Numbered from the stretch's first letter, positions 48,859-62,361 are shown. The stretch: 64,000 nucleotides of DNA from Deltaproteobacteria bacterium (GCA_021827495.1 JAKAVN010000003.1:766-64765); one strand, 5' to 3'. Made by a program: numbers and translations. Notes: generated from the sequence alone by a model not told the origin.

Positions 48859-48934
48859 TGGCTGGGCGGGAAGGATTCGAACCTTCGAATGCCAGGTCCA
48901 AAGCCTGGTGCCTTACCAGCTTGGCGACCGCCCA
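48859..48934 (-). tRNA. tRNA-Gln (anticodon UUG), CCA encoded
   Basis: Hand-folded cloverleaf: acceptor TGGGCGG/CCGCCCA, anticodon stem CCAGG/CCTGG with loop CTTTGGA, T arm GAAGG-TTCGAAT-CCTTC, discriminator G plus CCA; 76 nt. Confidence 0.9.
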
Positions 48935-49183
48935 GCACAGGCCGCATGTCCATCCCGCCGCTCCCACTGTCCGCCGCGCGCGAGGACTGCCGTTCGAGGG
49001 CATGGCGACGGCGGCCGATCCTAACGAAAGGCCATCGACCACAGGCCGTGCGCGCCGCATCGGCCGCTTGCCCCCGCCCGGTCATTGGCCGGCCATTGGA
49101 TGGAGCCGTGACGCGGAACCCTTGCCAACGGATCGGCCCAACTTGTTGGCCGCAGCGCGCGGGGCGCTGCGGCTCGTGGAGCG

Positions 49184-49213
49184 ATGTTAATGGATGGCGT
49201 TTTTGGGTGTCAA
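49184..49213 (-). promoter_or_regulatory. candidate sigma70-type promoter facing tRNA-Gln/prs (TTGACA-N18-TAACAT)
   Basis: The reverse complement of 49208-49213 is TTGACA and of 49184-49189 is TAACAT. By-eye match only. Confidence 0.3.
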
Positions 49214-49230
49214 TCACGCCTCCCGATTAT

Positions 49231-49545
49231 GTCATAAACATTGGAGAAGTCCGGGCATAAACATTTAAAGATGTCCGCTGGGTGGGGTAGCGCCGCGCGA
49301 TGGAGCAGATCGAGCGGCCAGTGCGGCGTCGCCGCGTCGCATTGGCCGGCGCGTATCCACAATCTCCAGTTTTTCGCCCGCGCTCCACTCCAGGGCGAGC
49401 GCGCAAGCGAAAAACTGTTTCAACAGCCCCCTGCCACTATCACCTTTCAGGAGGACACCCCACATGCTGAACTCCACCAACCACACCCCCCGCCTGCGGA
49501 CATCTCTAATTGTTTATGACGCGGACATCTTTAACTGTTCGCGAC
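49231..49545. repeat. 315-bp element bounded by doubled inverted repeats (two direct about 25-bp units at each end, ends inverted); MITE-like or a clustered protein-binding site
   Basis: Left units: gtcataaacattggagaagtccgg (49231-49254) and gcataaacatttaaagatgtccgc (49255-49278). Right units: gcggacatctctaattgtttatgac (49496-49520) and gcggacatctttaactgttcgcgac (49521-49545). Confidence 0.6.
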
Positions 49546-49797
49546 CGTGACGCGCAAGCAGGGGGGACGTCCTATCTAAGAAATAATTTTGGGCCCGGCT
49601 TGTCTGCGGCAATTCGCTGACCGTTCACAGCCCGGCGGTCGGGAGAAGACGCCGGTTCAATTTTCGACACTGGCTAGTGTAGTGTCTCTCAAATAGGAGT
49701 AACGAATTGCTCCACCCGGAACCGGACGTTCCCTCGAACTGTCAAATGCATCGCGGAGAGCCGGAGCTTGGTCAATGTTACTGACCCTTACGAGACA

Positions 49798-50154
49798 CTA
49801 CACTAGCGAGGGGCTGGCGCCGGGCGTTTCGAGCCGCCGGGCCGCCGCCGCGGGCTGCTCCGGTCGGCGCAACAGCGAGACCGGAACGAAGCCAGGCTTA
49901 TCCTCTCCATTGAGATCGGTATCGCGCAGTTCGACAAACCTCATCCGTGTAGAAGTGATTCCGGCCCCCACCGGCCGGTACGACCGCTTGGGCGTGATCA
50001 ATCCGAACGCGATTTCGACTCTGATACTGGGTAACGCATCGCGCACATCCACACTCATAACGGCCCCAGGCCACCAGCGGCTCTTTCCTAATCGGGTCAG
50101 CCATACCCAAACAGCCGTACCAGGCTTGAGACTCCCTTCATCGCCAGGTTTCAC
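49798..50154 (-). CDS. hypothetical protein, 118 aa, with a PWWP/Tudor-like WWPG segment
   Basis: GTG start with AAGAGGAG 8 nt upstream. GTAVWVWLTRLGKSRWWPGAVMSV resembles the hydrophobic-W-W-P core of SH3-like readers. No family recognised with certainty. Confidence 0.55.
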   Translation of the reverse strand: MKPGDEGSLKPGTAVWVWLTRLGKSRWWPGAVMSVDVRDALPSIRVEIAFGLITPKRSYRPVGAGITSTRMRFVELRDTDLNGEDKPGFVPVSLLRRPEQPAAAARRLETPGASPSLV

Positions 50155-50237
50155 TGCGCTTACTCCTCTTTCTGACCTATCGCAACGGAAAATCGATGCC
50201 GCTTGGCCGTGCCGCCTTGGTGCGGCCAGCGGACGAG

Positions 50238-52022
50238 TTAGTCAAGTTCCAATCCAGCTCTCAAGGCCTCGCGTTGCACATCCAGCTCCGCGGGTACGGT
50301 CTCACCAATCTTTGTGAAGAACTCTTCCTGCAAGTCGAGTTCGACAGCCCATTCCTGGGGTTTCACAGCCATCGCCTCTTTTAGGGAATCGTTGGAAATG
50401 TCGATACCCGTGAGGTCGAGAGATCCTTCAGCCGGCATCACGCCCACAGCCGAGTCATGCGCTCCAGCACGACCGTTCACCCGGTCCACGATCCACTTGA
50501 GCACGCGGATGTTCTCGCCATAGCCAGGCCACAGAAACCGGCCCTCCCGATCTTTCCTAAACCAGTTGACCATGAAAACTTTTGGCGGATGTTTGAGTCT
50601 GCTCTGCATTCCCAGCCAATGAGCAAAATAATCGCCCATGTTGTAGCCACAGAATGGGAGCATCGCCATCGGATCGCGGCGTACGATACCCACCTTGCCC
50701 GTGGCGGCGGCCGTCGTCTCAGAGCCCATGGTCGCGCCCAGGTAGACCCCGTGGGCCCAATCGAAGGATTCAAGAACCAGCGGCGCCGTCGAGGCGCGCC
50801 GCCCGCCAAAAACTATTGCCGAGATTGGTACTCCTTGCGGCGAATCCACCCTCGGGGAAAGCGCGGGATTATTATGCATGGGAGTCGTGAAGCGGCTGTT
50901 GGGATGCGCGGCGGGCTGGTCCGAATCTTTGCGCCAGGGCCGCCCCTGCCAGTCGAAGATTCCCGCGGGCGCCTCGACGCCCATACCCTCCCACCAGACA
51001 TCCCGGTCAGGCGTCATGGCGACGTTGGTGAAGATGGTATCCCGCTCCACCATCTTCATGGCGTTGGGATTTGAATGCGCGCTGGTTCCCGGAGCGACGC
51101 CGAAATATCCGGCCTCCGGATTAACCGCCCACAGGCGGCCATCCGGTCCAACTCGCATCCAGGCAATGTCGTCGCCCACCGTGAACACCCGCCACCCGCG
51201 GAACGACGGGGGCGGGGTAAGCATCGAAAGATTAGTTTTGCCGCATGCGCTTGGAAATGCCGCCGCGATGTAGGATGTCTCTCCGCTGGGACTTTGCAGG
51301 CCCAGGATCAGCATGTGCTCCGCCAGCCAGCCTTCCTTCCTGCCCAGCCAGCTCGCAATGCGCAGCGCGAAACACTTCTTACTCAGCAGGGCGTTGCCGC
51401 CGTAACCGCTGCCGGCAGACCAGACGGCGTTGTCCTGCGGAAAATGGCAGATGAGGCGGCGTTGCGGGTCGCAGTCGAGGGTGGAATGGAGTCCGCGATT
51501 GAAGTCGTCGGACGATCCCAGCGCATCGAGGGCGACGGTGCCCATCCGGGTCATGATTCCCATGTTGAGCACGACATACACACTGTCCGTAAGCTCAATG
51601 CCGACTCGTGCAAAGGGGGAATCGATAGGGCCCAAAATATAGGGCACAACGTACATCGTGCGGCCGCGCATCGAGCCGTCGAACCAGCCCCGTAGTCTCT
51701 GGTAAGCCTCGTCGGGCGCCATCCAGTTGTTCGTCGGGCCTGCATCATCCCTGTTCGGCGTGCAGATGAAAGTAAGATCCTCGGAGCGCGCGACGTCGTT
51801 GGGATTAGACCGGTGCAGGTAGCAACCTGGCCGCGTGGCGGAATTCAGCGGAATCAGAACCCGCGCCGCGACCGCTTGTTTAAATAGACGCTGCCGTTCG
51901 GTTTCGCTCCCGTCGCACCACACCACCTGGTCCGGCTTTGTTAGATGGACCATCTGGGCCACCCACTCGGACAGAAAATGATTTGTGGCGGCGGTTTTTC
52001 TCAGCACGCGCATATCCGTCAT
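50238..52022 (-). CDS. pckG: phosphoenolpyruvate carboxykinase (GTP)
   Basis: GPTNNWM, YVVPYILGP, AAFPSACGKTNLSML kinase-1a loop and FMVNWFRKD. Confidence 0.95.
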   Translation of the reverse strand: MTDMRVLRKTAATNHFLSEWVAQMVHLTKPDQVVWCDGSETERQRLFKQAVAARVLIPLNSATRPGCYLHRSNPNDVARSEDLTFICTPNRDDAGPTNNWMAPDEAYQRLRGWFDGSMRGRTMYVVPYILGPIDSPFARVGIELTDSVYVVLNMGIMTRMGTVALDALGSSDDFNRGLHSTLDCDPQRRLICHFPQDNAVWSAGSGYGGNALLSKKCFALRIASWLGRKEGWLAEHMLILGLQSPSGETSYIAAAFPSACGKTNLSMLTPPPSFRGWRVFTVGDDIAWMRVGPDGRLWAVNPEAGYFGVAPGTSAHSNPNAMKMVERDTIFTNVAMTPDRDVWWEGMGVEAPAGIFDWQGRPWRKDSDQPAAHPNSRFTTPMHNNPALSPRVDSPQGVPISAIVFGGRRASTAPLVLESFDWAHGVYLGATMGSETTAAATGKVGIVRRDPMAMLPFCGYNMGDYFAHWLGMQSRLKHPPKVFMVNWFRKDREGRFLWPGYGENIRVLKWIVDRVNGRAGAHDSAVGVMPAEGSLDLTGIDISNDSLKEAMAVKPQEWAVELDLQEEFFTKIGETVPAELDVQREALRAGLELD

Positions 52023-52786
52023 CGCGAAAACCTCAGATCCTTCGCATTCGGGGCCTGTAGTTCTCGCTCAGCATCCGACAGCGCCTGAAAAATATCCAGG
52101 GCGGCTGAAGCCGACATCAGAGCCTGAATCGCATCAGGCTTTGCGCACATCTGTGAAAGCTTCGACAGCCAGGGCAGATGGAGCTCGTGAAACTTCAGGC
52201 CCAGGGCAAAAAACAGGTACGTTGGCCGCCCATCAAGGGCGTCGAAGTCCACGCCCTCATGCGAACGGCCAAGCACCATGAACGGACGCACTACCTGTCC
52301 CGGATGGCGCAGCAAGGTATGCATGAACGCTACGCCATTGCCCATAGCACTGGGCATGATGTTCTCACGTTCGATGAGCGCGCCGACAAACCAGGCCTTG
52401 TCGCGCACCAGGTCCAGGCGATTCGCTAAATCAGCAAGCTCCTCGATAACGCCAATTTTTGTGTCGGCTGAAAGCTCGGCGATTATGTGGCTCGGCTGAA
52501 AGCAGCTGGCGAGATCGAGCATCCTGCGGGGCATGGACGCCATTATCGAAACTTCCGAATGGCGCGGCGTGACGCCAAGCATCTGGTCGTCGAGCCAGGC
52601 GTCCAGCATGGCTTTGCGGAACCGCCATTGATTGCCGATCTTGACGCCCGGCAACGTCCCTTCCGAGACGAGCTTCAGGACGGTGCGCTCGTTCACGTTG
52701 AGGTAGCCCGCGACTTGGCGCGCAGTCATCAACCGGTCGCTGAATTCGACGGGATTTGGGCTTGATTCACGGACTGTGTTTGACAC
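52019..52786 (-). CDS. fusion regulator: excisionase/MerR-type HTH + PTS EIIA(Ntr/fructose-mannitol)-type domain
   Basis: LMTARQVAGYLNVNERTVLKLVSEGTLPGVKIGNQWRF (HTH_17-like). EIIA-2-like body with ERENIMPSAMGNGVAFMHT, comparable to the PtsN GxGxAxPH phospho-His region. ATGA overlap with pckG at 52019-52022. Confidence 0.8.
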   Translation of the reverse strand: MSNTVRESSPNPVEFSDRLMTARQVAGYLNVNERTVLKLVSEGTLPGVKIGNQWRFRKAMLDAWLDDQMLGVTPRHSEVSIMASMPRRMLDLASCFQPSHIIAELSADTKIGVIEELADLANRLDLVRDKAWFVGALIERENIMPSAMGNGVAFMHTLLRHPGQVVRPFMVLGRSHEGVDFDALDGRPTYLFFALGLKFHELHLPWLSKLSQMCAKPDAIQALMSASAALDIFQALSDAERELQAPNAKDLRFSR

Positions 52787-52839
52787 TTGCGCAAGATTAC
52801 GTGAAAATACCTCGGATTACAACAGATGACCTTGTTATT

Positions 52840-53244
52840 ATGAAAAAGAAGGATAACTGCGGTGATGGCGGCATTGGCGGCTCCGCGCAGGATTGCCAGG
52901 ATTCGCTTGCAATCCGAAGGCTTCGTGTGATTTTCACGCCGGGCGAGAAAAAGCTTCTTGCTGGCGGAGTCTTCAGCGACGTGGACCTCGACAATGTGGA
53001 TTTCTCAGGCGCGGACCTGCGCGAGACCTGCTTTATCGGTGTCTCATTGGAGGGATCTGATTTTTCCGAAGCGAATCTGAGCGGGGCCAGATTCCTCGAA
53101 TGCGATCTCCGCGGCGCATCCTTCGAGCGGGCGATCTTTCATCGCACAAGCTTTCATAAGAGCTGGCTAATCGGGGTAACCGGGCTCTCGCAGCAACTGC
53201 GCGATTATGTCAGCGCGAAGGGCGGCTTGCTCTGGTCTTGCTGA
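52840..53244 (+). CDS. pentapeptide-repeat protein
   Basis: Track ORF trimmed to ATG 52840. Consecutive A(D/N)LXX-type pentads ([52 protein letters not shown]). Confidence 0.8.
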
Positions 53245-53473: not shown

Positions 53474-54490
53474 CTACCCTGAACGCCGAGTGAGCTTGAA
53501 GGCTTCGGCGAGGAGCTGGTAAGAGCGCATGCGTGCACGATGGTCGTGCACGATCGTCACCACCATCTGATCCTCGACGTGGAGCGCGCTCGCCATATCG
53601 ATTAGCTGGCCGCGAACCTTGTCGGGCGTACCAGCAAAGTAGCGCGGCCAATCGCCGAGCTCAGTGGGCGGCGCTTCCGCTGACGGACCCAGCTCCGCGA
53701 TCGCCTCCTCGGGCGGCGGAATCGGACGCACGTCGCCTTGCCTGATGCGGCGGCGGAACAGGCGGGCGCTGGTGAGCAGGCGCCCGGCCTCGGCCTCGGT
53801 ATCGGCGCAAATCACGCCCAGCGCGATGATCGCCTGCGGCGCGGACAATTCCCTGGAGGGCGTGAAGTGCGAGAAATAATGCTCCAGCGCGGCGCGGGTC
53901 GGATGGGGATCGATGAAGTGCGCAAAGGCGTAGCGCAATCCGAGCTGGGCCGCCGCCGAAGCGCTCCACAGGCTGGAGCCGAGCAGCCACACCTCGGGAC
54001 AGCCAGGCATGTCGGGCGAGACGGTCAGGCGGCTGAACGGATGCTTGGCGGGGAAGCCGCGGTTGAGGAAAGCCAGCAGCTCCACCATCTGTTGGGGGAA
54101 ATCATCGGCCGGCGGCTGCTGGCGATTACGTTGCAGTGCGAAGGAATCCAGCGGGGTGCCGCCGGGCGCGCGGCCGACGCCGAGATCGATGCGGCCCGGG
54201 TACAAGGCGTGAAGCACGCGGAAGGTTTCAGCGACTTTCAGCGGGCTGTAGTGCGGCAGCATCACGCCGCCCGAACCGACCCGGATGGCGGAGGTTTCGG
54301 CGGCGACCCGAGTTATGAGAATCTCGGGCGCGGGGCTGGCCAGCGCCGTTATTGCGTGGTGCTCGGCGATCCAATAACGCTCGTAGCCGAGCCGGTCGGC
54401 CAGGCGGGCCAGCTCGATCGTGTTGCGCAGGGCGTCGGCCGGGGTGAAGCCGGCGGACACTGGTGCTTGGTCGATGACCGAAAGCTTCAA
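53474..54490 (-). CDS. LLM class flavin-dependent oxidoreductase (YhbW/MsnO8-like)
   Basis: [38 protein letters not shown] and [12 protein letters not shown]. Confidence 0.9.
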
Positions 54491-54591
54491 GGCGGGGTTT
54501 CCTTTATGCCGCGAGGGCCATTAGGCTACGTTATCCCGGGGTTTCGCACAGGTTCAATTGCCATTCAGCGCCGCATGCACGGAGAACAAAC

Positions 54592-55698
54592 GTGAACTTC
54601 GGACTGCTCGAGTCGTTTCGCAATTCCGACCGCAACGAACTCGCTTTCCCGGAACTCTACCGCCGCCACGTCGACCTCGCGGTCGAGGCCGAGGAGATGG
54701 GCTACGACACCATCTGGCTGACCGAGCATCACTTCGTCGGGGACGGTTACTCGCCGGTGATGCTGCCGCTGGCGGCGGCGATCGCGGCGCGGACCAAAAA
54801 AATCCGCATCGGAACGTTCGTCCTGCTGATGCCGCTGCATCATCCGCTCCACGTCGCCGAGTCGGCCGCGACCGTCGACGTGCTCTCAGGCGGACGCTTG
54901 GACCTCGGCCTGGGCCAGGGATACCGGCCCCAGGAGTTCGACGGCTTCAACATCGCGCGCACCGAGCGCGCCTCGCGCCTGCGTGAGGGCGTCGAGATAA
55001 TCCGCCGCGTCTTCACCGAGAACGACGTCACCCACGAGGGCCAGCACTTCACGGTGCGCAACGTGACGCTTTACCCCAAGCCTGTCCAGCAGCCGCATAT
55101 CCCGATCTGGATCGGCGCGCGCAGCCGCAAGGCGACCGAGCGCGCGGCGCGCAACGGCTACCATCTGGCCGGCACCGGGCCGCGCCAGGCCGAGCTTTAC
55201 AAGGAGGCGCTTAAGGCGGCCGGGCGCAACCCGGCCGACTTTCATATTGCGCAGTTGCGCTTCGGCTACGTCGCCGCGCGCCGCGAGCGCGCGTGGGACG
55301 ACGCCGAGTACGCGATTCATTACCTGATGGCCAGGTACGGGCAGTGGATCGCAGAGGCCGCGGATGCTCCGGGCGACCAGCGGTTCGCCAAGGCGCCTTC
55401 GATCGGCGCGCTGCGCAAGCTCAACGACACGCGCTTTTTGGGCGAGCCGCTTATCATCGGTTCGCCCGACGACGCTATCGAGATGCTAGAGCGCTACACC
55501 GATTACACGCACCTGGCGTTGGGGATGTCGCTGCCCGGGCTCGATCCGAAGAAGGTGCGCGCCAGCATGCGGCTGTTTGCCAGGGAGGTGATCCCGCACT
55601 TCCGGCGCAAGTCGCGCGCCGCCGCCGCCAAGCCCAGGGCTGCGCGCGCCGGCCGCGCGCTAGCGGCTGCTATCGCACGGCCGCGCGCCAGGGGATGA
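54592..55698 (+). CDS. LLM class flavin/F420-dependent oxidoreductase
   Basis: GTG start. YDTIWLTEHHF, GRLDLGLGQGY and IPIWIGA. Confidence 0.85.
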   Translation: MNFGLLESFRNSDRNELAFPELYRRHVDLAVEAEEMGYDTIWLTEHHFVGDGYSPVMLPLAAAIAARTKKIRIGTFVLLMPLHHPLHVAESAATVDVLSGGRLDLGLGQGYRPQEFDGFNIARTERASRLREGVEIIRRVFTENDVTHEGQHFTVRNVTLYPKPVQQPHIPIWIGARSRKATERAARNGYHLAGTGPRQAELYKEALKAAGRNPADFHIAQLRFGYVAARRERAWDDAEYAIHYLMARYGQWIAEAADAPGDQRFAKAPSIGALRKLNDTRFLGEPLIIGSPDDAIEMLERYTDYTHLALGMSLPGLDPKKVRASMRLFAREVIPHFRRKSRAAAAKPRAARAGRALAAAIARPRARG

Positions 55699-55835
55699 AT
55701 CGATGTCCAAGATCAGGATTTCGCACGCGTGCCACGGATGTTCCGCGCCAGAACGGCGAGGAGCGTGTGATCCGCATGGCCGCCCGGAGCAAACAATGAT
55801 CGAACTGATCCAGACATGAGGCGCTGGCCCGAACG

Positions 55836-57434
55836 ATGGTCGCACCTACACTGAGCGCCGCACCAGGGCTCGTCGAGGAGCGCGCCCAGCACAAGTGGCT
55901 GGTGGCGGCCGCGGTGATGCTGGGGACCTTTCTCACGGTGCTCGACACCTCGATCGTCAACGTCGCGCTGCCCTACATGCAAGGCTCGTTTGCCGCCAGC
56001 GTCGATGAGATAACCTGGGTCGTGACCAGCTACCTGGTCGCCAGCGGCGTGATGATCCCGATGACCGGATGGATCGCCGCGAGCCTGGGCCGCAAGCGCT
56101 ACTTCATCGTTTCCGTAGTGGTGTTCATGGCCGCCTCGGGGCTGTGCGGCATGGCGCAGACCCTCGACCAGATGGTGGTGTTTCGCCTGATGCAGGGCGT
56201 GGCGGGCGCGGCGATGATGCCGCTGTCGCAGGCGATTCTGCTCGAGACCTTTCCGCCCGCCGAGCACACCCTGGCGATGTCGACCTGGGGAATGGGAATC
56301 CTGGTTGGGCCGATCCTGGGACCGACGCTGGGCGGATGGATCACCACGCACTGGAGCTGGCGCTGGAATTTCTACATCAACCTGCCCGCGGGAGTAGTGA
56401 CCGCGCTAATGGTCTACAGTTTCGTGCACGACCCGGCGCATCTGCGCGAGCGCCGCAGCGGCCGCGTCGACTACCTGGGGATATTCCTGCTGGTCGCGGC
56501 GCTCGGGCTGCTGCAGATCGTGCTCGACCGCGGCCAGCGCTCCGACTGGTTCGCGGCGCCGTGGGTGCGCTACTTCGTAACTTGCTCGGGGCTCTCGATG
56601 GTGCTGCTCACGATCCACGAGCTGCGCTTTCCCGATCCGATTCTCGATCTCCGGATGTTCAAGCACTTCTCCTTTTCGCTCGGCGTGATCCTGACCGCGG
56701 CGCAGGTGTTCGTGATCTTCGGCGTCAACCTGCTCAATCCGCTCTTCACCCAGGAGCTGATGGGCTACGACGCTTGGATCTCGGGCCTGGCGGTCGCACC
56801 GCGCGGCGTGGGCGCGGTGATTTCCCTGTTCAGCATCGGCCAGATCTCGCGCCGCGGGGTCGATACGCGGCCGTTCATGGTGGGCGGTTTCTTGCTGGCG
56901 GGATGGGCCGCCTTCAGGATGGCCGACTGGAACCTCTCGGTCAGCATGATGAACCTGGTGCCGCCGATCTTCATTTTCGGGCTCGGCCTGGGCGCGGTCT
57001 TTTCGGCGCTGACCTCCGCCTCGCTCACCGGGATTCCGCCGGCCCGGATGGGTTACGCCTCGAGCCTGTTCAATATGGTTATCACCACCGGCGCCGCAGT
57101 AGGGGTCTCAACCGTCAGCAATATGCTGACCGCGCACGAACAGATGCATCAGACCTACCTGGTGCAGCACTTCTCGGTCTTCGATGCCTGGCGCATGAGC
57201 CGCGACCATCTGCCGATGCCGGGCGCGCCGCATTTCAACTATCTCGGGCAGGTGATCAGCGGGCAGCATCAGCAGCTCGGCGTGCTTTATGGCGTGATCC
57301 AGTCGCAGGCCTGGCTGCTGGCCTACAATGACGTCTATCGCCTGATGGCAATGGTCCTGGTGTTCATAGCTCCTTGGTGCTTGCTGCTGCCGCGTAGCGG
57401 ACGCGGCGGCGGCGCTTCCGCGGCGAGCCACTGA
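55836..57434 (+). CDS. MFS transporter, DHA2 (EmrB/QacA, 14-TMS) family
   Basis: LDTSIVNVALPYMQ, GWIAASLGRKR and RLMQGVAGAAMMP motifs; about 14 hydrophobic segments. Confidence 0.9.
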   Translation: MVAPTLSAAPGLVEERAQHKWLVAAAVMLGTFLTVLDTSIVNVALPYMQGSFAASVDEITWVVTSYLVASGVMIPMTGWIAASLGRKRYFIVSVVVFMAASGLCGMAQTLDQMVVFRLMQGVAGAAMMPLSQAILLETFPPAEHTLAMSTWGMGILVGPILGPTLGGWITTHWSWRWNFYINLPAGVVTALMVYSFVHDPAHLRERRSGRVDYLGIFLLVAALGLLQIVLDRGQRSDWFAAPWVRYFVTCSGLSMVLLTIHELRFPDPILDLRMFKHFSFSLGVILTAAQVFVIFGVNLLNPLFTQELMGYDAWISGLAVAPRGVGAVISLFSIGQISRRGVDTRPFMVGGFLLAGWAAFRMADWNLSVSMMNLVPPIFIFGLGLGAVFSALTSASLTGIPPARMGYASSLFNMVITTGAAVGVSTVSNMLTAHEQMHQTYLVQHFSVFDAWRMSRDHLPMPGAPHFNYLGQVISGQHQQLGVLYGVIQSQAWLLAYNDVYRLMAMVLVFIAPWCLLLPRSGRGGGASAASH

Positions 57435-57481
57435 CTCTGCAGGTGCCGCATCCGTGGCGGCTTGCTTTTGCGCAGCCGGCG

Positions 57482-57958
57482 ATGAATCTCTTAAAATGGG
57501 TTGGGATGCGAAGGATCGGGCCAAAAACAATCGTCGCCGCGGCGCTGGCTGCGGCCATCGCGATCGTTGCCGTGCTGCCGGCCCTGCGGCCCCGCTGCAT
57601 CGAGCTTCGGGGCGCCGAGCGGCTGACGGTCTCGATGGCGCGGCTTAGGAGCGGCGAGGCGCGATTGTTCTGCTACCGCGGCCGCGCGGGCGAGCGGCTG
57701 CGCTTTCTGCTCGCGCGCGGCAGCGACGGCAAGGTCCGTGCGGTCTTCGACGCCTGCCGCCAGTGTTACAAATTCCACCAGGGCTACGACACCGCGCACG
57801 GCATGTTGATCTGCCGGCTCTGCGGCAACCGCTATCCGATCGATCACATGATGAAGGGCGCAGCCTCGTGCGTGCCGGTCAGCCTGCCCCACCATGAGGA
57901 CGCCTCTCGCGTTCAGGTCAACGTCTCCGACCTCAAAGCGGGAGCGTCGCTGTTTTGA
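57482..57958 (+). CDS. membrane-anchored Cys-rich protein, DUF2318-like zinc-ribbon
   Basis: N-terminal TM helix, then CRQCYKF ... CRLCGNRYP (two CxxC pairs). Start chosen at ATG 57482; 57443 and 57506 are also possible. Confidence 0.55.
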   Translation: MNLLKWVGMRRIGPKTIVAAALAAAIAIVAVLPALRPRCIELRGAERLTVSMARLRSGEARLFCYRGRAGERLRFLLARGSDGKVRAVFDACRQCYKFHQGYDTAHGMLICRLCGNRYPIDHMMKGAASCVPVSLPHHEDASRVQVNVSDLKAGASLF

Positions 57959-58390: not shown

Positions 58391-59293
58391 ATGAGACGCG
58401 TTTGTGCTCTCACGCTGATATTGGCTATTGCGATGCCCGCCGCGGCTTTCGCACACGGAGTAGTTGGGGATTATGTCTTTCTGGAGCCGTTGATCGCCGA
58501 AGACCCAACGCCCGCCAACGAGTTGGATATCGCCCAGCCAGCATGGAACAAGACCGGCGCCGGCCAGAATTTCTCGCTCGGATACACATTGGAGAAGGTG
58601 CTTTACCAGGACGAGAACCACACGCCGAGGTTCAGCGCCGGGGTGTTCAGCGCGTGGCATTACCAATGGCCGAAGAATGCGCCTGACCAACGCGGCTTCG
58701 ACGACCTCAACCTGTTTGCCAAATGGGCGTTCTTCGTTTCGCCCAAGCATGAGTTTCTGCTCTCGGCCGGCCCGCTCCTGCAGATCCCCACAGGCAATCC
58801 GGGCGTGGAGCAGCAGAGCCATACGAGCTTGGGGCCGCTGTTGCTGTGGGAGAAAGGGATGGGCGATCTTCCCAATTGGCCGGTCCTCAAATATCTGCGG
58901 CCTTTCGGGCTGCAGGGGGACTTCAGCTATCTGCCCGCGCTGGGCGGCCACACCAGCCACCTCATGTTCGCCGATCAGGTGGTCGAATACTCGCTCCCGT
59001 ACCTGAGCAACTCTGTGCGGGACATCGGCTTGAAGCCGCCGTTTCGGAACCTCTTCCTTTTCACCGAATTCAACTACTCACAGCTCGTTGCGGGGCCGGC
59101 GCAAGAGACCTTTCCGAGCATCGTGGCGACGCCGGGGATTGCTTACGTGGGCTACCATTTTGAACTAAGTTTCGGTACGCAACTGGCGCTCAACAAGGCG
59201 GCCGTACCGGCCACCCACGCCGTGGCAATCGGGCTGCTCGATATATTTTACGATTCGATATTCCCGCAGGCCGGCAACTGGACGATCAATTAG
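58391..59293 (+). CDS. putative outer-membrane beta-barrel protein (MetA-pathway 'transporter' family-like)
   Basis: Track ORF trimmed to ATG 58391. Signal peptide ending AFA-HG, alternating amphipathic strands, C-terminal aromatic-rich end. Family assignment is tentative. Confidence 0.6.
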   Translation: MRRVCALTLILAIAMPAAAFAHGVVGDYVFLEPLIAEDPTPANELDIAQPAWNKTGAGQNFSLGYTLEKVLYQDENHTPRFSAGVFSAWHYQWPKNAPDQRGFDDLNLFAKWAFFVSPKHEFLLSAGPLLQIPTGNPGVEQQSHTSLGPLLLWEKGMGDLPNWPVLKYLRPFGLQGDFSYLPALGGHTSHLMFADQVVEYSLPYLSNSVRDIGLKPPFRNLFLFTEFNYSQLVAGPAQETFPSIVATPGIAYVGYHFELSFGTQLALNKAAVPATHAVAIGLLDIFYDSIFPQAGNWTIN

Positions 59294-59305: not shown

Positions 59306-59689
59306 ATGAAGCCATTGAATCTGTTGATATTCGGCGCTCCGTTACTATTGGCCGCGAGTATAACCAGCGTGCCGGCCGCTTCGGCGCACGCATTTCCCGA
59401 ACAGGAGACCCCATCGGCCGGGCAGCGGCTGGCCGCGCCTCCATCCGAGGTCACGATCAAATTCGATGCTCCGATCGAGCAGCTGTTTGCCAAACTGGAG
59501 GTGCTGGACGCCAACGGCAAGCCTGAAACGATAGGTCCACCCGAGGTCGGTTCCGGCGCGCTGACTCTGTCGGTCAAGCTCGCGGCGCTCAAACCCGGTG
59601 ACTACACGGTCAAGTGGGGCGTCGTCTGCATCGACTCGCATCATACCGAAGGTTCCTACCTCTTCACGGTCGGCGGAGGCGGCGGATGA
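59306..59689 (+). CDS. copC: CopC domain copper-binding periplasmic protein
   Basis: Signal peptide cleavage ASA|HAFPEQ leaves an N-terminal His. VTIKFDAPIE, GDYTVKWGVVCIDSHHTEG and FTV follow the CopC pattern. Confidence 0.85.
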   Translation: MKPLNLLIFGAPLLLAASITSVPAASAHAFPEQETPSAGQRLAAPPSEVTIKFDAPIEQLFAKLEVLDANGKPETIGPPEVGSGALTLSVKLAALKPGDYTVKWGVVCIDSHHTEGSYLFTVGGGGG

Positions 59690-60555
59690 CCCCGATCGGA
59701 GAGCGGGCCATCGTCGCATGGCCCTTGCTGGTGGCGGAAACCTTGATCTTCGGCACGACCGCGTTTGCTCTGCTGCTGGCGCCGGCACCGCAGTCTAAAG
59801 GAATTGCCAGCGCGCTGACGCCGTTGTGGCGCGGGCTGGCGCTGCTGGCGGCGTTGCTCTCGCCGCTCGCTCTACTGGTGGGCACGGCGAATATGGCGGA
59901 CGTCTCTCTGCGCGCCGCAATTTCCTTTCTTCCGCAGGTGTTGCGTGAGACGCACTTTGGGCACGTATGGTCGTGGAGCTTTCCATTGACGTTGGCGCTT
60001 CTGGTGCTTGCGTGGACGCCCGGGCGCGGACCATTGAAAACAGCCGCGTTGAGTCTTGTGGCCGGCGCGCTGCTGTTGCTCGTAAGCTTTTCCAGCCACG
60101 CGATCGATCGGGGAAGGATCGCGCTCATCGTCCACTTCACCCACGAAGTTGCCGCGGCGCTCTGGATCGGAGCGATCCTTGGACTGTGGTTCGGCGCCGT
60201 CCGCGGCAGGCTTGGCTCTGGATGGATACGGCGGATTGCGCCGCGGGTCTCGCGCGTCGCGGGATGGACCGTTGCAACTCTGATATTGAGCGGTCTTTAC
60301 ACGGCCTACTACTCGCTTGGCGCCGATCCATATCGCCTCATCGACTCGGCATACGGGCGGACCCTGGTGGAGAAGGTATGCGCCGCGGCGCTCGTGCTCC
60401 TCATCGGCGCTTACAACCGCTACTGCCTGATGCCCGCAGTCTCCGAGTCGTCAGCACAGGAGCGCCTGCTGCGAAACGTCGGCCTCGAATCCCTGCTGTT
60501 AATTGGAGTTCTGGGGCTGGCCGCCCTGCTCGCCAACACCCCGCCGGCGCATTGA
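59686..60555 (+). CDS. copD: CopD family copper membrane protein
   Basis: ATGA overlap with copC (59686-59689). Eight or so TM helices. HFGHVW and SSHA ... HEVAAALWIG are CopD-like. Confidence 0.85.
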   Translation: MTPIGERAIVAWPLLVAETLIFGTTAFALLLAPAPQSKGIASALTPLWRGLALLAALLSPLALLVGTANMADVSLRAAISFLPQVLRETHFGHVWSWSFPLTLALLVLAWTPGRGPLKTAALSLVAGALLLLVSFSSHAIDRGRIALIVHFTHEVAAALWIGAILGLWFGAVRGRLGSGWIRRIAPRVSRVAGWTVATLILSGLYTAYYSLGADPYRLIDSAYGRTLVEKVCAAALVLLIGAYNRYCLMPAVSESSAQERLLRNVGLESLLLIGVLGLAALLANTPPAH

Positions 60556-60786
60556 CGAGCGAGGCCGCGTGGCGGAACCCACCACACACCGTTTTCGCAT
60601 CGGCCCCATAGGGTGCATATCGTGCGGAGCACCTTTCCTAACCAACGATTCTTGCGCCAGCGGCAAGCCAACCCCGCCCGCCCCTCGAATACCTTTTCCT
60701 AGTGTCGCAGACGATCGGTTTCCGCTCGCTGCGATCCTATCCAAGGCATACAAATGTAGTGTGTACTCTCTGCGTGGATTGCTCCC

Positions 60787-62361
60787 ATGCATGCATTATT
60801 TACACAAGCCTTCGCCGCAGGCCACTTCGTGCCGCATGGCCAGTGCCTGCTGTGGGATCCGCCACTGCTGTGGCTGGACGTAGTATCGGATTCGATAACC
60901 GCGGTTGCCTACTATTCAATCCCGCCGCTGCTGATCTACTTCATCAGCAAGCGGCGCGATATGCCATTTCGCGCGATCTTCTGGATGTTCGGCATTTTCG
61001 TTTTCTCTTGCGGCACCACTCACGCGCTCGAGGTGTTGACGATTTGGTATCCGGCATACTGGGCGGCGGGCATCGCCAAGGCGGTGACCGCGATTGCCTC
61101 ACTGGTCTGCGCCATCGCGCTGATTCCGTTGCTGCCCAAGGCGCTCGCCCTTCCGACCCACTCGCAGCTCGAGGATACCAATCGGGAGCTGCAGCGGGAG
61201 GTGGCGGAACGCAAGCGTGCGGAGAACCGGTTCCGCGGATTGCTGGAGTCGGCTCCCGACGCGATAGTGGTCGTGGATGCGCAGGGCGACATCGTGTTGG
61301 TGAACGGGCAGACCGAAAAGCTGTTCGGCTACGCACGGCCGGAGATGATCGGAAAGCCGGTCGAACTCCTGCTGCCGGAGCGCTTCCGCGGACGCCACGT
61401 GGCCCAGCGCCAGAACTACTTCAGCGAGCCGCGCGCGCGTGCGCTGGGCAGCGGTTTGGAACTGTTCGGCCTGCGCAAGGACGGCGCCGAGTTCCCGGTC
61501 GAGGTCGCCCTGAGCCCGCTGGTTACCGACGAAGGCCTGGTCTCCAGCGCCATCCGCGACATTTCCGCGCGCAAACGCGTCCAGCTCGAACTGGCGCGGG
61601 CGCGCGACGAGGCGCTGGAAGCCTCGCGGCTCAAGTCCGCCTTCGTGGCCAACATGTCGCACGAGTTGCGCACGCCGCTCAACGGCATCATCGGCTTCAG
61701 CCAATTGCTTTACGCCGGACACATCACTCCGGCTTCCGCCGAATACAAGCAGAGCCTCGGCGACATCCTCGCCAGCGCGCGCCATCTGCTAAGCCTGATT
61801 AACGACGTGCTCGATCTTGCCAAGGTCGAATCGGGCACGATGGAATTCACGCCCGAACCGATCTAGCCGGCACTGCTGATCGAGGAAGTCCGCAGCGTCC
61901 TGCGCGGCGTGGCCGCACAGAAGAAAATCCAGGTCGAGGCCGAAGCCGCGCCGGAGTTGGGCCAGGTCGTGCTCGATCCCGGCAAACTGCGGCAGGTGCT
62001 TTACAACTATCTTTCAAATGCGCTCAAGTTCAGCGGCGCCGACGCGCGCGTCACGATCCGGGTGCGCCCCGAGGGCAAGGAATGGTTCCGCCTCGAGGTC
62101 GAGGACAACGGCGAGGGCATTCGCGCGGAGGATTTGGCAAAGCTCTTCATTGTTTTCAACCAACTCGATTCTTCCTCCAGCAGGCGCCATCAGGGCACCG
62201 GTCTCGGCTTGGCGCTGACCCGCCAGATCGTCGAGGCCCAGGGCGGCACCGTCGGAGTCACGAGCGAGCACGGCAAAGGAAGCATCTTCTGGGCGGTGCT
62301 GCCGCGCCGCCACCCGCTGCGCGACGGCCACCACACGGCGGCGGCGGATCCGGCTAAGTGA
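60787..62361 (+). pseudogene. sensor histidine kinase: ethylene-binding-domain-like 3-TM sensor + PAS + HisKA + HATPase, interrupted by in-frame TAG at 61864-61866 (pseudogene, split gene or sequence error)
   Basis: Track ORFs 60787..61866 and 61909..62361 are in the same frame. EBD-like [19 protein letters not shown] and FSCGTTH. The PAS domain starts [14 protein letters not shown]-box [10 protein letters not shown]. After the stop come N-box YNYLSNALKFS, G1 EDNGEGI and G2 GTGLGLAL. Confidence 0.8.

Follow-up and report, generated by a model that had tools for sequence, protein, structure and literature searches.

AzoEtr1 of Azospirillum brasilense Sp7 is a bacterial ethylene receptor of 525 aa, in which a three-helix ethylene-binding domain (EBD) is followed by PAS and histidine-kinase parts. 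The 130 N-terminal aa are able to bind 14C-ethylene, residues D35, C75, H79 and K98 of the protein correspond to D25, C65, H69 and K91 of the plant receptor ETR1, and the gene controls biofilm formation and root colonization (PLoS Genet 2025, PMC11819568). Here, we describe a sensor histidine kinase gene of the same layout on the plus strand of a 64-kb stretch of DNA (JAKAVN010000003.1:766-64765; "the window" denotes this whole stretch). The gene probably encodes an AzoEtr1-type ethylene-receptor kinase, either recently inactivated or mis-called, and lies downstream of a copper-acquisition cluster of the Binataceae.

Compared through the published description of AzoEtr1, the window kinase reveals the same domain order, a nearly equal length (524 codons versus 525 aa) and the same residue numbers. 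The surroundings differ. The stop codon of AzoEtr1 is overlapped by a response-regulator gene, and the other neighbours have no relation to copper, whereas the window kinase has no nearby regulator, sits after copC-copD and is interrupted by a TAG codon. With Arabidopsis ETR1/ERS1 and cyanobacterial SynEtr1 it shares the ETR1_N domain, the Cu(I) ligands (Cys65/His69 in ETR1) and the counterparts of Asp25, Lys91, Tyr32, Ile35 and Pro36. In the plant receptors the EBD is followed by a GAF domain, in place of which the window kinase has PAS; they signal mainly via CTR1, and a dedicated P-type ATPase, RAN1, supplies their copper. SynEtr1 carries a phytochrome-like module, unlike the window kinase.

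On the copper side, the closest described systems are E. coli YobA-YebZ-YebY, B. subtilis YcnJ/YcnI and Pseudomonas CopABCD, which likewise couple a CopC with a His/Asp/His site to a polytopic CopD. Copper import by such CopC/CopD pairs has been found experimentally for YobA/YebZ and for YcnJ, and import by YcnJ supports metallation of membrane oxidases. As in systems with CopB/PcoB, a predicted 12-stranded outer-membrane barrel is encoded upstream, although without detectable sequence similarity to PcoB. In contrast to these systems, the window cluster contains no multicopper oxidase CopA, no YebY/DUF2511 and no YcnI, but a DUF2318 protein and a small membrane protein instead. The usual CopRS two-component pair is absent, and the EBD kinase occupies its position.

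The kinase and its ethylene-binding domain

Pfam matches and translation bear out the reading frame and the domain layout that an earlier note on this DNA had proposed: EBD (aa 1-125), coiled linker, PAS (aa 148-258), HisKA (aa 283-350) and HATPase_c (aa ~385-508). The sensor part, assigned there to the ETR1 type, matches ETR1_N (PF25487) with 127.1 bits (cut-off 27, E 3.4e-37) at aa 27-122, covering model positions 2-97 of 97. In the output part, HATPase_c is matched with E 2e-28, and its N, G1, F and G2 boxes are present as NYLSNALKF, DNGEGI, FIVFNQLD and GTGLGLA; the phospho-acceptor is His292. Positions of all features are collected in Table 1.

The Cu(I) ligand positions C75 and H79 lie within CGTTH, at exactly the nucleotides given in the earlier note and at the places of ETR1 Cys65 and His69. 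Among relatives gathered with unbiased search patterns, C75 is kept in 48 of 48 and H79 in 47 of 48. The equivalents proposed for Asp25, Tyr32 and Pro36 are likewise recovered as D35, Y42 and P46; Y42, I45 and P46 are identical to Tyr32, Ile35 and Pro36 of ETR1. According to work of Wang and colleagues in 2006, alanine substitutions of Tyr32, Ile35, Pro36 and Ile62 in ETR1 reportedly abolish ethylene binding. The constant, gapless offset of +10 to ETR1 asserted in the earlier note holds in part: in the alignment to ETR1, and in agreement with the numbering published for AzoEtr1, it runs from Asp25/D35 to His69/H79 (helices 1-2), whereas helix 3 follows at +7, with Lys91 corresponding to K98. 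The loop leading into helix 3 has three residues fewer than its ETR1 counterpart. D35 and K98 thus stand at the positions of the relay formed in ETR1 by Asp25 (helix 1) and Lys91 (helix 3), whose role has been described (PMC10266040).

A search of solved structures with the EBD gave no match. Ahead of the ETR1_N match, the predicted periplasmic N-terminal tail carries the motif P16-H17-G18-x-C20-x-x-W23. Other bacterial EBD proteins keep it almost without exception (H in 124, C in 128 and W in 126 of 129), and it may correspond to the Cys4/Cys6 disulfide of ETR1 or serve as an entry site for copper.

Among 1.84 billion representative proteins, the EBD family comprises 8,604 clusters of 50% identity at E <= 0.001 and 1,644 at E <= 1e-30. 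A pattern scan over one genome per species, built on an alignment of seven EBD sequences, yielded at least 594 confirmed EBD loci, with hosts among cyanobacteria, Acidobacteriota, Proteobacteria, Nitrospirota and others. For closer comparison we sampled 80 diverse loci from species genomes and 62 metagenomic loci, the latter skewed to close relatives of the window; further contigs (L145-L150) were reached through the barrel protein of the copper cluster. In the following, the clade denotes the Binataceae loci that share at least 60% EBD identity with the window, and L numbers denote individual loci, of which L084, L094 and L127 were obtained from JGI soil samples. Out of 62 other EBD proteins scanned, 49 contain HATPase_c, 47 HisKA, 43 PAS and 19 a receiver domain. 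Thus, EBD-PAS-kinase is the ordinary and commonest bacterial form, and the earlier note's view of a little-studied kind of receptor is overstated, since EBD-PAS-HisKA-HATPase is already characterized in AzoEtr1. What appears to be new at this locus is its copper neighbourhood, confined to one small lineage.

The in-frame stop codon and the eroded flank

The stop at codon 360 strips the ATP-binding domain from the predicted product, which is 359 aa long. The sequence around it reads CCGATCTAGCCG; relatives L001, L087, L088 and L100 have CCGATCGAGCC where the window has CCGATCTAGCC. Codon 360 is GAG in eight of the 12 relatives checked and GAA, GAC, GAT or AAC in the other four, so that the TAG of the window is explained by a single G-to-T change. 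The kinase gene is otherwise free of defects, with His292 and all catalytic boxes intact. Against three intact relatives, dN/dS ranges from 0.10 to 0.26 in each of the four domains and from 0.16 to 0.21 after the stop; overall values of 0.08-0.26 show purifying selection on the kinase across the clade. Intact boxes and low dN/dS beyond the stop imply that the stop is either very recent or a base-calling error. The kinase is therefore a very recent pseudogene, unless the TAG base call is wrong.

The latter alternative, in which TAG reflects a mistake in sequencing or assembly, or else a minority allele, and the gene encodes an intact, working orphan ethylene-receptor kinase, is a serious possibility, although we place it somewhat short of probable. 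It would account for a lone substitution in a gene with intact catalytic boxes, whose dN/dS past the stop resembles that of intact relatives, and intact orthologues do exist (L086, L087, L094/L146, L127); an intact copy is carried by contig DATGIT010000009.1 of GCA_035295545.1. On the other hand, polished assemblies rarely hold substitution errors, and the kinase is disrupted in other short-read relatives too, by frameshifts in L088 and L090. Furthermore, the flank is truly eroded. Directly downstream of the kinase, a family III CoA-transferase gene has been reduced to its last 55 codons, and a stop codon precedes this remnant. Relatives carry FMN_bind_2, a complete CoA_transf_3 and a TPP-dependent enzyme between the kinase and an M20 peptidase; these three genes are lost in the window. 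This deletion scar makes a genuine nonsense mutation more believable, yet it is no proof.

The copper cluster and its distribution

Between 57.4 and 62.4 kb, six consecutive genes on the plus strand lead from a DUF2318 protein to the sensor kinase (Table 1).

Table 1. Positions of the kinase gene, the copper cluster and associated features in the window.
Feature	Position (nt)	Strand	Basis and remarks
FtrD-like/DUF2318 membrane protein	57443-57958	+	Pfam PF10080, E 5.4e-17; start codon uncertain
Small membrane ORF, 104 aa, one transmembrane segment	57955-58269	+	ORF list; no family assignment
Signal-peptide-bearing 300-aa protein, predicted 12-stranded outer-membrane beta-barrel	58391-59293	+	AlphaFold/Foldseek
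copC, periplasmic Cu(II)-binding protein	59306-59689	+	PF04234, E 1.6e-19
copD, importer-type inner-membrane protein, 289 aa	59686-60555	+	PF05425, E 9.7e-18
copD-kinase spacer, 231 bp	60556-60786	+	Aligned with relatives, ten spacers
AzoEtr1-type sensor histidine kinase, 524 codons + stop, TAG-interrupted	60787-62361	+	Pfam, translation
N-terminal tail motif (aa 16-23)	60832-60855
EBD core (Pfam match aa 27-122)	60865-61152	+
EBD residue D35	60889-60891
EBD residue Y42	60910-60912
EBD residues I45/P46	60919-60924
EBD residue V72	61000-61002
EBD residue C75	61009-61011
EBD residue H79	61021-61023
EBD residue K98	61078-61080
Phospho-acceptor His292	61660-61662
In-frame TAG, codon 360, between HisKA and HATPase	61864-61866	+	Translation, alignment of relatives
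CoA-transferase (family III) remnant, last 55 codons	62387-62551	-	tblastn, 82% identity to L145 residues 356-410

The DUF2318 protein, which heads the conserved cluster, has one N-terminal transmembrane segment and two CxxC motifs in its C-terminal domain. Its orthologues in relatives are syntenic and 62-85% identical. Published work links DUF2318 to the CsoR copper regulon of Firmicutes and, in Campylobacter, to FetA of the FetMP system. The TTG start of the following 104-aa ORF overlaps the TGA of the DUF2318 gene, i.e., both are translationally coupled, and its product contains a DICHP motif. This ORF was found in all relatives: tblastn places it at the same position with 65-80% identity in L001, L084, L085, L087, L089, L094 and L100, and in L145-L150 it is called as a gene, without Pfam hit.

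The 300-aa protein has no match in Pfam or NCBIfam. A total of 406 homologues were retrieved at E <= 0.001; the 120 listed are all at least 60% identical, and those with a named source are without exception hypothetical proteins from Candidatus Binataceae, where the gene is always found directly upstream of copC. The AlphaFold model (pLDDT 67, pTM 0.66) is all-beta with about 12 strands. Its significant Foldseek matches in the PDB are almost all bacterial outer-membrane barrels (FapF, NanC, KdgM, intimin), and the copper transporter PcoB (7pge) is among the matches with E 5.8e-5. On the basis of this model, the protein may provide the copper cluster with its channel through the outer membrane, for entry or for exit.

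For the following pair, the features named in the earlier note were read directly from the sequence and agree with the Pfam assignments: CopC has His28 as mature N-terminus after the signal peptide as well as D110-S-H-H, and copD is coupled to copC through an ATGA overlap of 4 bp. Since the mature chain contains no Met, CopC is of the class with only a His1/Asp/His Cu(II) site and no Met-rich Cu(I) site. In CopD, His138 and His150/153 are candidates for the periplasm-facing YebZ pair His135/His154. By analogy with the described systems, the cluster would combine a channel in the outer membrane, a Cu(II) binder in the periplasm, an importer in the inner membrane and possibly a redox helper.

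The kinase is set apart from these genes. The barrel gene and copC are separated by 12 bp and copC and copD overlap, whereas between copD and the kinase lie 231 bp with conserved blocks. In the alignment of ten spacers, these blocks are kept in most relatives. The first (60652-60671) consists of the imperfect palindrome TTGCGCcaGCGGCAA (60652-60666) followed by GCCAA, the second (ATAnAA, about 60745-60752) is near the start codon of the kinase. Scans of the spacer revealed no sigma-70 consensus and no clear terminator. The TTGCGCcaGCGGCAA motif does not recur in the 64-kb window, and no operator shared with the upstream regions of the cluster was found. The spacer is a candidate for a separate promoter or operator of the kinase.

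Within the clade, all loci with enough upstream sequence show the order DUF2318 protein, small ORF, 300-aa protein, CopC, CopD and kinase, the kinase starting 230-380 bp downstream of copD. Copper cluster and kinase occur together in L001, L083-L085, L087, L088, L094/L097, L127-L129 and L145-L147; two clade loci, L089 and L100, are without the barrel-CopC-CopD part. The copCD adjacency pointed out in the earlier note therefore recurs in related genomes, yet it was not encountered outside this Binataceae subclade. Searched with phmmer, the FtrD-like protein, the 300-aa protein, CopC and CopD of the window give matches only at loci whose EBD is at least 60% identical. At 129 non-clade EBD loci, 100 of which have at least 2 kb of upstream sequence, no CopC or CopD was found within 10 kb (phmmer with the window proteins, E < 0.01, a search that a very divergent CopC could escape). 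No more than 6 kb from EBD genes outside the clade lie 36 strongly hydrophobic ORFs, which by eye resemble Nuo subunits, TatC, MlaE, Amt, CDF, MFS and the like, and a single P1B-ATPase-like ORF occurs in 1.9 Mb of non-clade flanks. Absence at 129 loci of other lineages marks the adjacency as a lineage-specific arrangement rather than a general design.

A His-rich membrane ORF is found within about 1 kb of the EBD gene, and divergent to it, at two loci from Acidobacteriota (L056, 8121-9065, and L072, 8981-9922, both on the minus strand). By eye it resembles a cation-diffusion facilitator, and it is the only other metal-related neighbour seen.

More distant Binataceae contigs contain the copper cluster without the kinase, namely L148/149, with a 300-aa protein 67% identical to that of the window, and L150 (64%). 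This suggests that the cluster is an old, family-wide unit to which the kinase was added in one subclade. The downstream M20 peptidase is about 90% identical across the clade; its members are thus close relatives, and inherited synteny can explain why the adjacency is conserved.

As presumed in the earlier note, the association of an EBD sensor with CopC-CopD appears to be undescribed. No paper naming both an ethylene receptor and CopD was found in the literature. Likewise, a published survey of copD neighbourhoods in Proteobacteria, 5,804 in all, names CopABCD(RS), Cus, PCuAC, YcnI and DUF2511 and no EBD kinase.

The window itself appears, from its gene content, to be chromosomal DNA of an uncultured soil bacterium of the Binataceae (phylum Binatota). 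The nearest named homologues of both the kinase and the 300-aa barrel protein come from metagenome-assembled genomes of Candidatus Binataceae, and elsewhere the window encodes the housekeeping and envelope functions DnaE, ribosomal protein L25, PRPP synthetase (Prs), ArgJ, PEPCK, glycosyltransferases and a MoxR/VWA set. No copper enzymes were found in the rest of the 64 kb. The Binatota, an uncultured phylum, have been described as methylotrophs and as degraders of alkanes, and copper monooxygenases are present in some of them. Upstream of the cluster, at 53474-57434, are two luciferase-like oxidoreductases and a DHA2/EmrB-type MFS pump, where relatives instead have PolB, DUF3565, Metallophos and FAA-hydrolase. 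As this flank is unlike that of all relatives, the left border of the cluster has been rearranged in the window genome. A region at 48859-53200 beside tRNA-Gln, with a GC content of 0.60 and low third-position GC, was considered as a foreign island. Since its genes are those for PEPCK and an HTH/PTS-EIIA protein, the idea was dropped, and the region carries no sign of a mobile element.

Fate of the kinase and competing explanations

The clade comparison comprises 13 distinguishable lineages. Canonical, intact kinases with PAS are found in L087 and the L094/L146 group. In L084, L085/86, L088, L089, L100 and L001, PAS was lost by in-frame deletions with at least two different junctions; they run between similar "RKRxE/RKRVQ" linker segments and join the EBD straight to HisKA. 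Substitutions in the EBD affect L145 (C75G), L001 (H79Q and P46A), L100 (H79E and P46A), L089 (C20L, W23G, Y42F and P46V) and L127-129 (C20S and Y42C). Frameshifts in L001 and L145 were discarded as signs of decay: neighbouring genes of L001 are fragmented too and both belong to the same assembly series, so that assembly errors are possible, and we relied on substitutions. The clade kinase has thus been under purifying selection overall, yet is repeatedly lost or altered.

We prefer the reading that an AzoEtr1-type receptor kinase came to sit beside a copper-acquisition cluster. A cluster widespread in Binataceae, comprising the DUF2318 CxxC protein, the small membrane protein, the barrel, CopC and an importer-type CopD, would have been joined in one subclade by such a kinase downstream of copD. 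The three membrane helices form an ETR1-type EBD with a predicted Cys75/His79 Cu(I) site and an Asp35-Lys98 relay. This domain would hold Cu(I), to which ethylene or a similar small unsaturated ligand would bind, and ligand binding would alter autophosphorylation at His292, from where the signal would reach a response regulator whose gene lies at some other place. Homology with ETR1, SynEtr1 and AzoEtr1 is the basis for the Cu(I) site, for a ligand bound within the membrane and for the change in autophosphorylation.

Besides the possible mis-call discussed above, several observations weigh against this reading. Near-invariant EBD residues are changed in five of the 13 clade lineages, whereas outside the clade only five of 128 sequences deviate at C20, D35, Y42, C75, H79 or K98 (Fisher's test, p ~6e-4, with lineages that are not fully independent). 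Ethylene sensing may therefore not be the selected trait in this clade. V72 replaces the Ile of ETR1 Ile62, a conservative exchange also present in five of 48 other EBDs. Searches with CheY and OmpR (phmmer) revealed no receiver-domain ORF in the 64-kb window and none in the flanks of the clade loci, while receiver genes are present at 96 other loci; the clade kinase is thus an orphan. Finally, CopC and CopD stay below their NCBIfam equivalog cut-offs, with 63 bits versus 95 and with 123.5 bits (across 15-287) versus 195, respectively.

A stronger functional claim would be that CopC and CopD, together with the barrel and the DUF2318 protein, constitute a dedicated route for loading the receptor with copper, comparable to RAN1, so that the locus as a whole is one Cu(I)-loading and ethylene-sensing unit. 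Here, the kinase lies behind the cluster at each subclade locus with upstream sequence, despite differing outer flanks, and the place next to a kinase where a response regulator is usually found is not taken by one. L089 and L100 combine the loss of barrel-CopC-CopD with a degenerate EBD, and in B. subtilis membrane cuproenzymes need importers of the CopCD type for their metallation. Nevertheless, we consider this claim unlikely. The adjacency has no independent origin, as illustrated by the 129 EBD loci of other lineages and the lone P1B-ATPase-like ORF in their flanks, and since the relatives are all of one family, their synteny may be just inherited. The kinase has a much narrower distribution than the copper cluster, which does without it elsewhere, and the spacer interposes its own conserved blocks between the two. 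In L001, H79Q is present while the cluster is retained; decay of the EBD did not follow a loss of CopCD there. The self-contained module envisaged in the earlier note fails on similar grounds: no response regulator is encoded in the window, the kinase is truncated by the stop, the spacer separates it from copD, and the cluster exists without it.

Least credible, and in our judgement very improbable, is that the EBD was re-used as a membrane Cu(I) sensor whose Cys75/His79 occupancy reports copper and whose kinase controls the uptake genes via an unlinked regulator, an alternative raised in the earlier note for which no specific support was found: the kinase does stand beside copper-uptake genes and not beside a regulator, and ethylene-binding residues without obvious copper role vary in relatives (Y42C, Y42F, P46A/V), but ETR1 binds its Cu(I) firmly, as a cofactor and not as a reversible signal, the window protein keeps the ethylene-binding residues apart from Ile to Val at 72, spacer and upstream regions of the cluster have no operator in common, the cluster occurs without the kinase, and the copper ligands themselves are lost in L145, L001 and L100, for which reason we rate this role below copper loading.

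For the AzoEtr1-type receptor kinase downstream of the copper cluster, it follows that the adjacency is real, is kept within the subclade and fits a shared need for copper, whereas a functional coupling of the receptor to copper supply is plausible but unproven. That the EBD kinase of this subclade depends on, or reports on, the neighbouring barrel/CopC/CopD/DUF2318 copper route is, taken as one proposition, doubtful. The value of the finding is also limited by its scope, with one family-level lineage, a broken copy in the window and a receptor type that is already characterized.

Nevertheless, we know of no described route by which the copper cofactor reaches bacterial ethylene receptors, and an EBD kinase kept behind a CopC-CopD uptake cluster provides a concrete hypothesis that is testable in a heterologous host. 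If the kinase depends on this copper route, the locus would be the first genetic pointer to the Cu(I) source of a prokaryotic ethylene receptor; if it reports on copper, it would be the first case of an EBD re-used to monitor copper supply. Furthermore, the locus extends AzoEtr1-type receptors to the Binatota, where ethylene and copper are both physiologically relevant.

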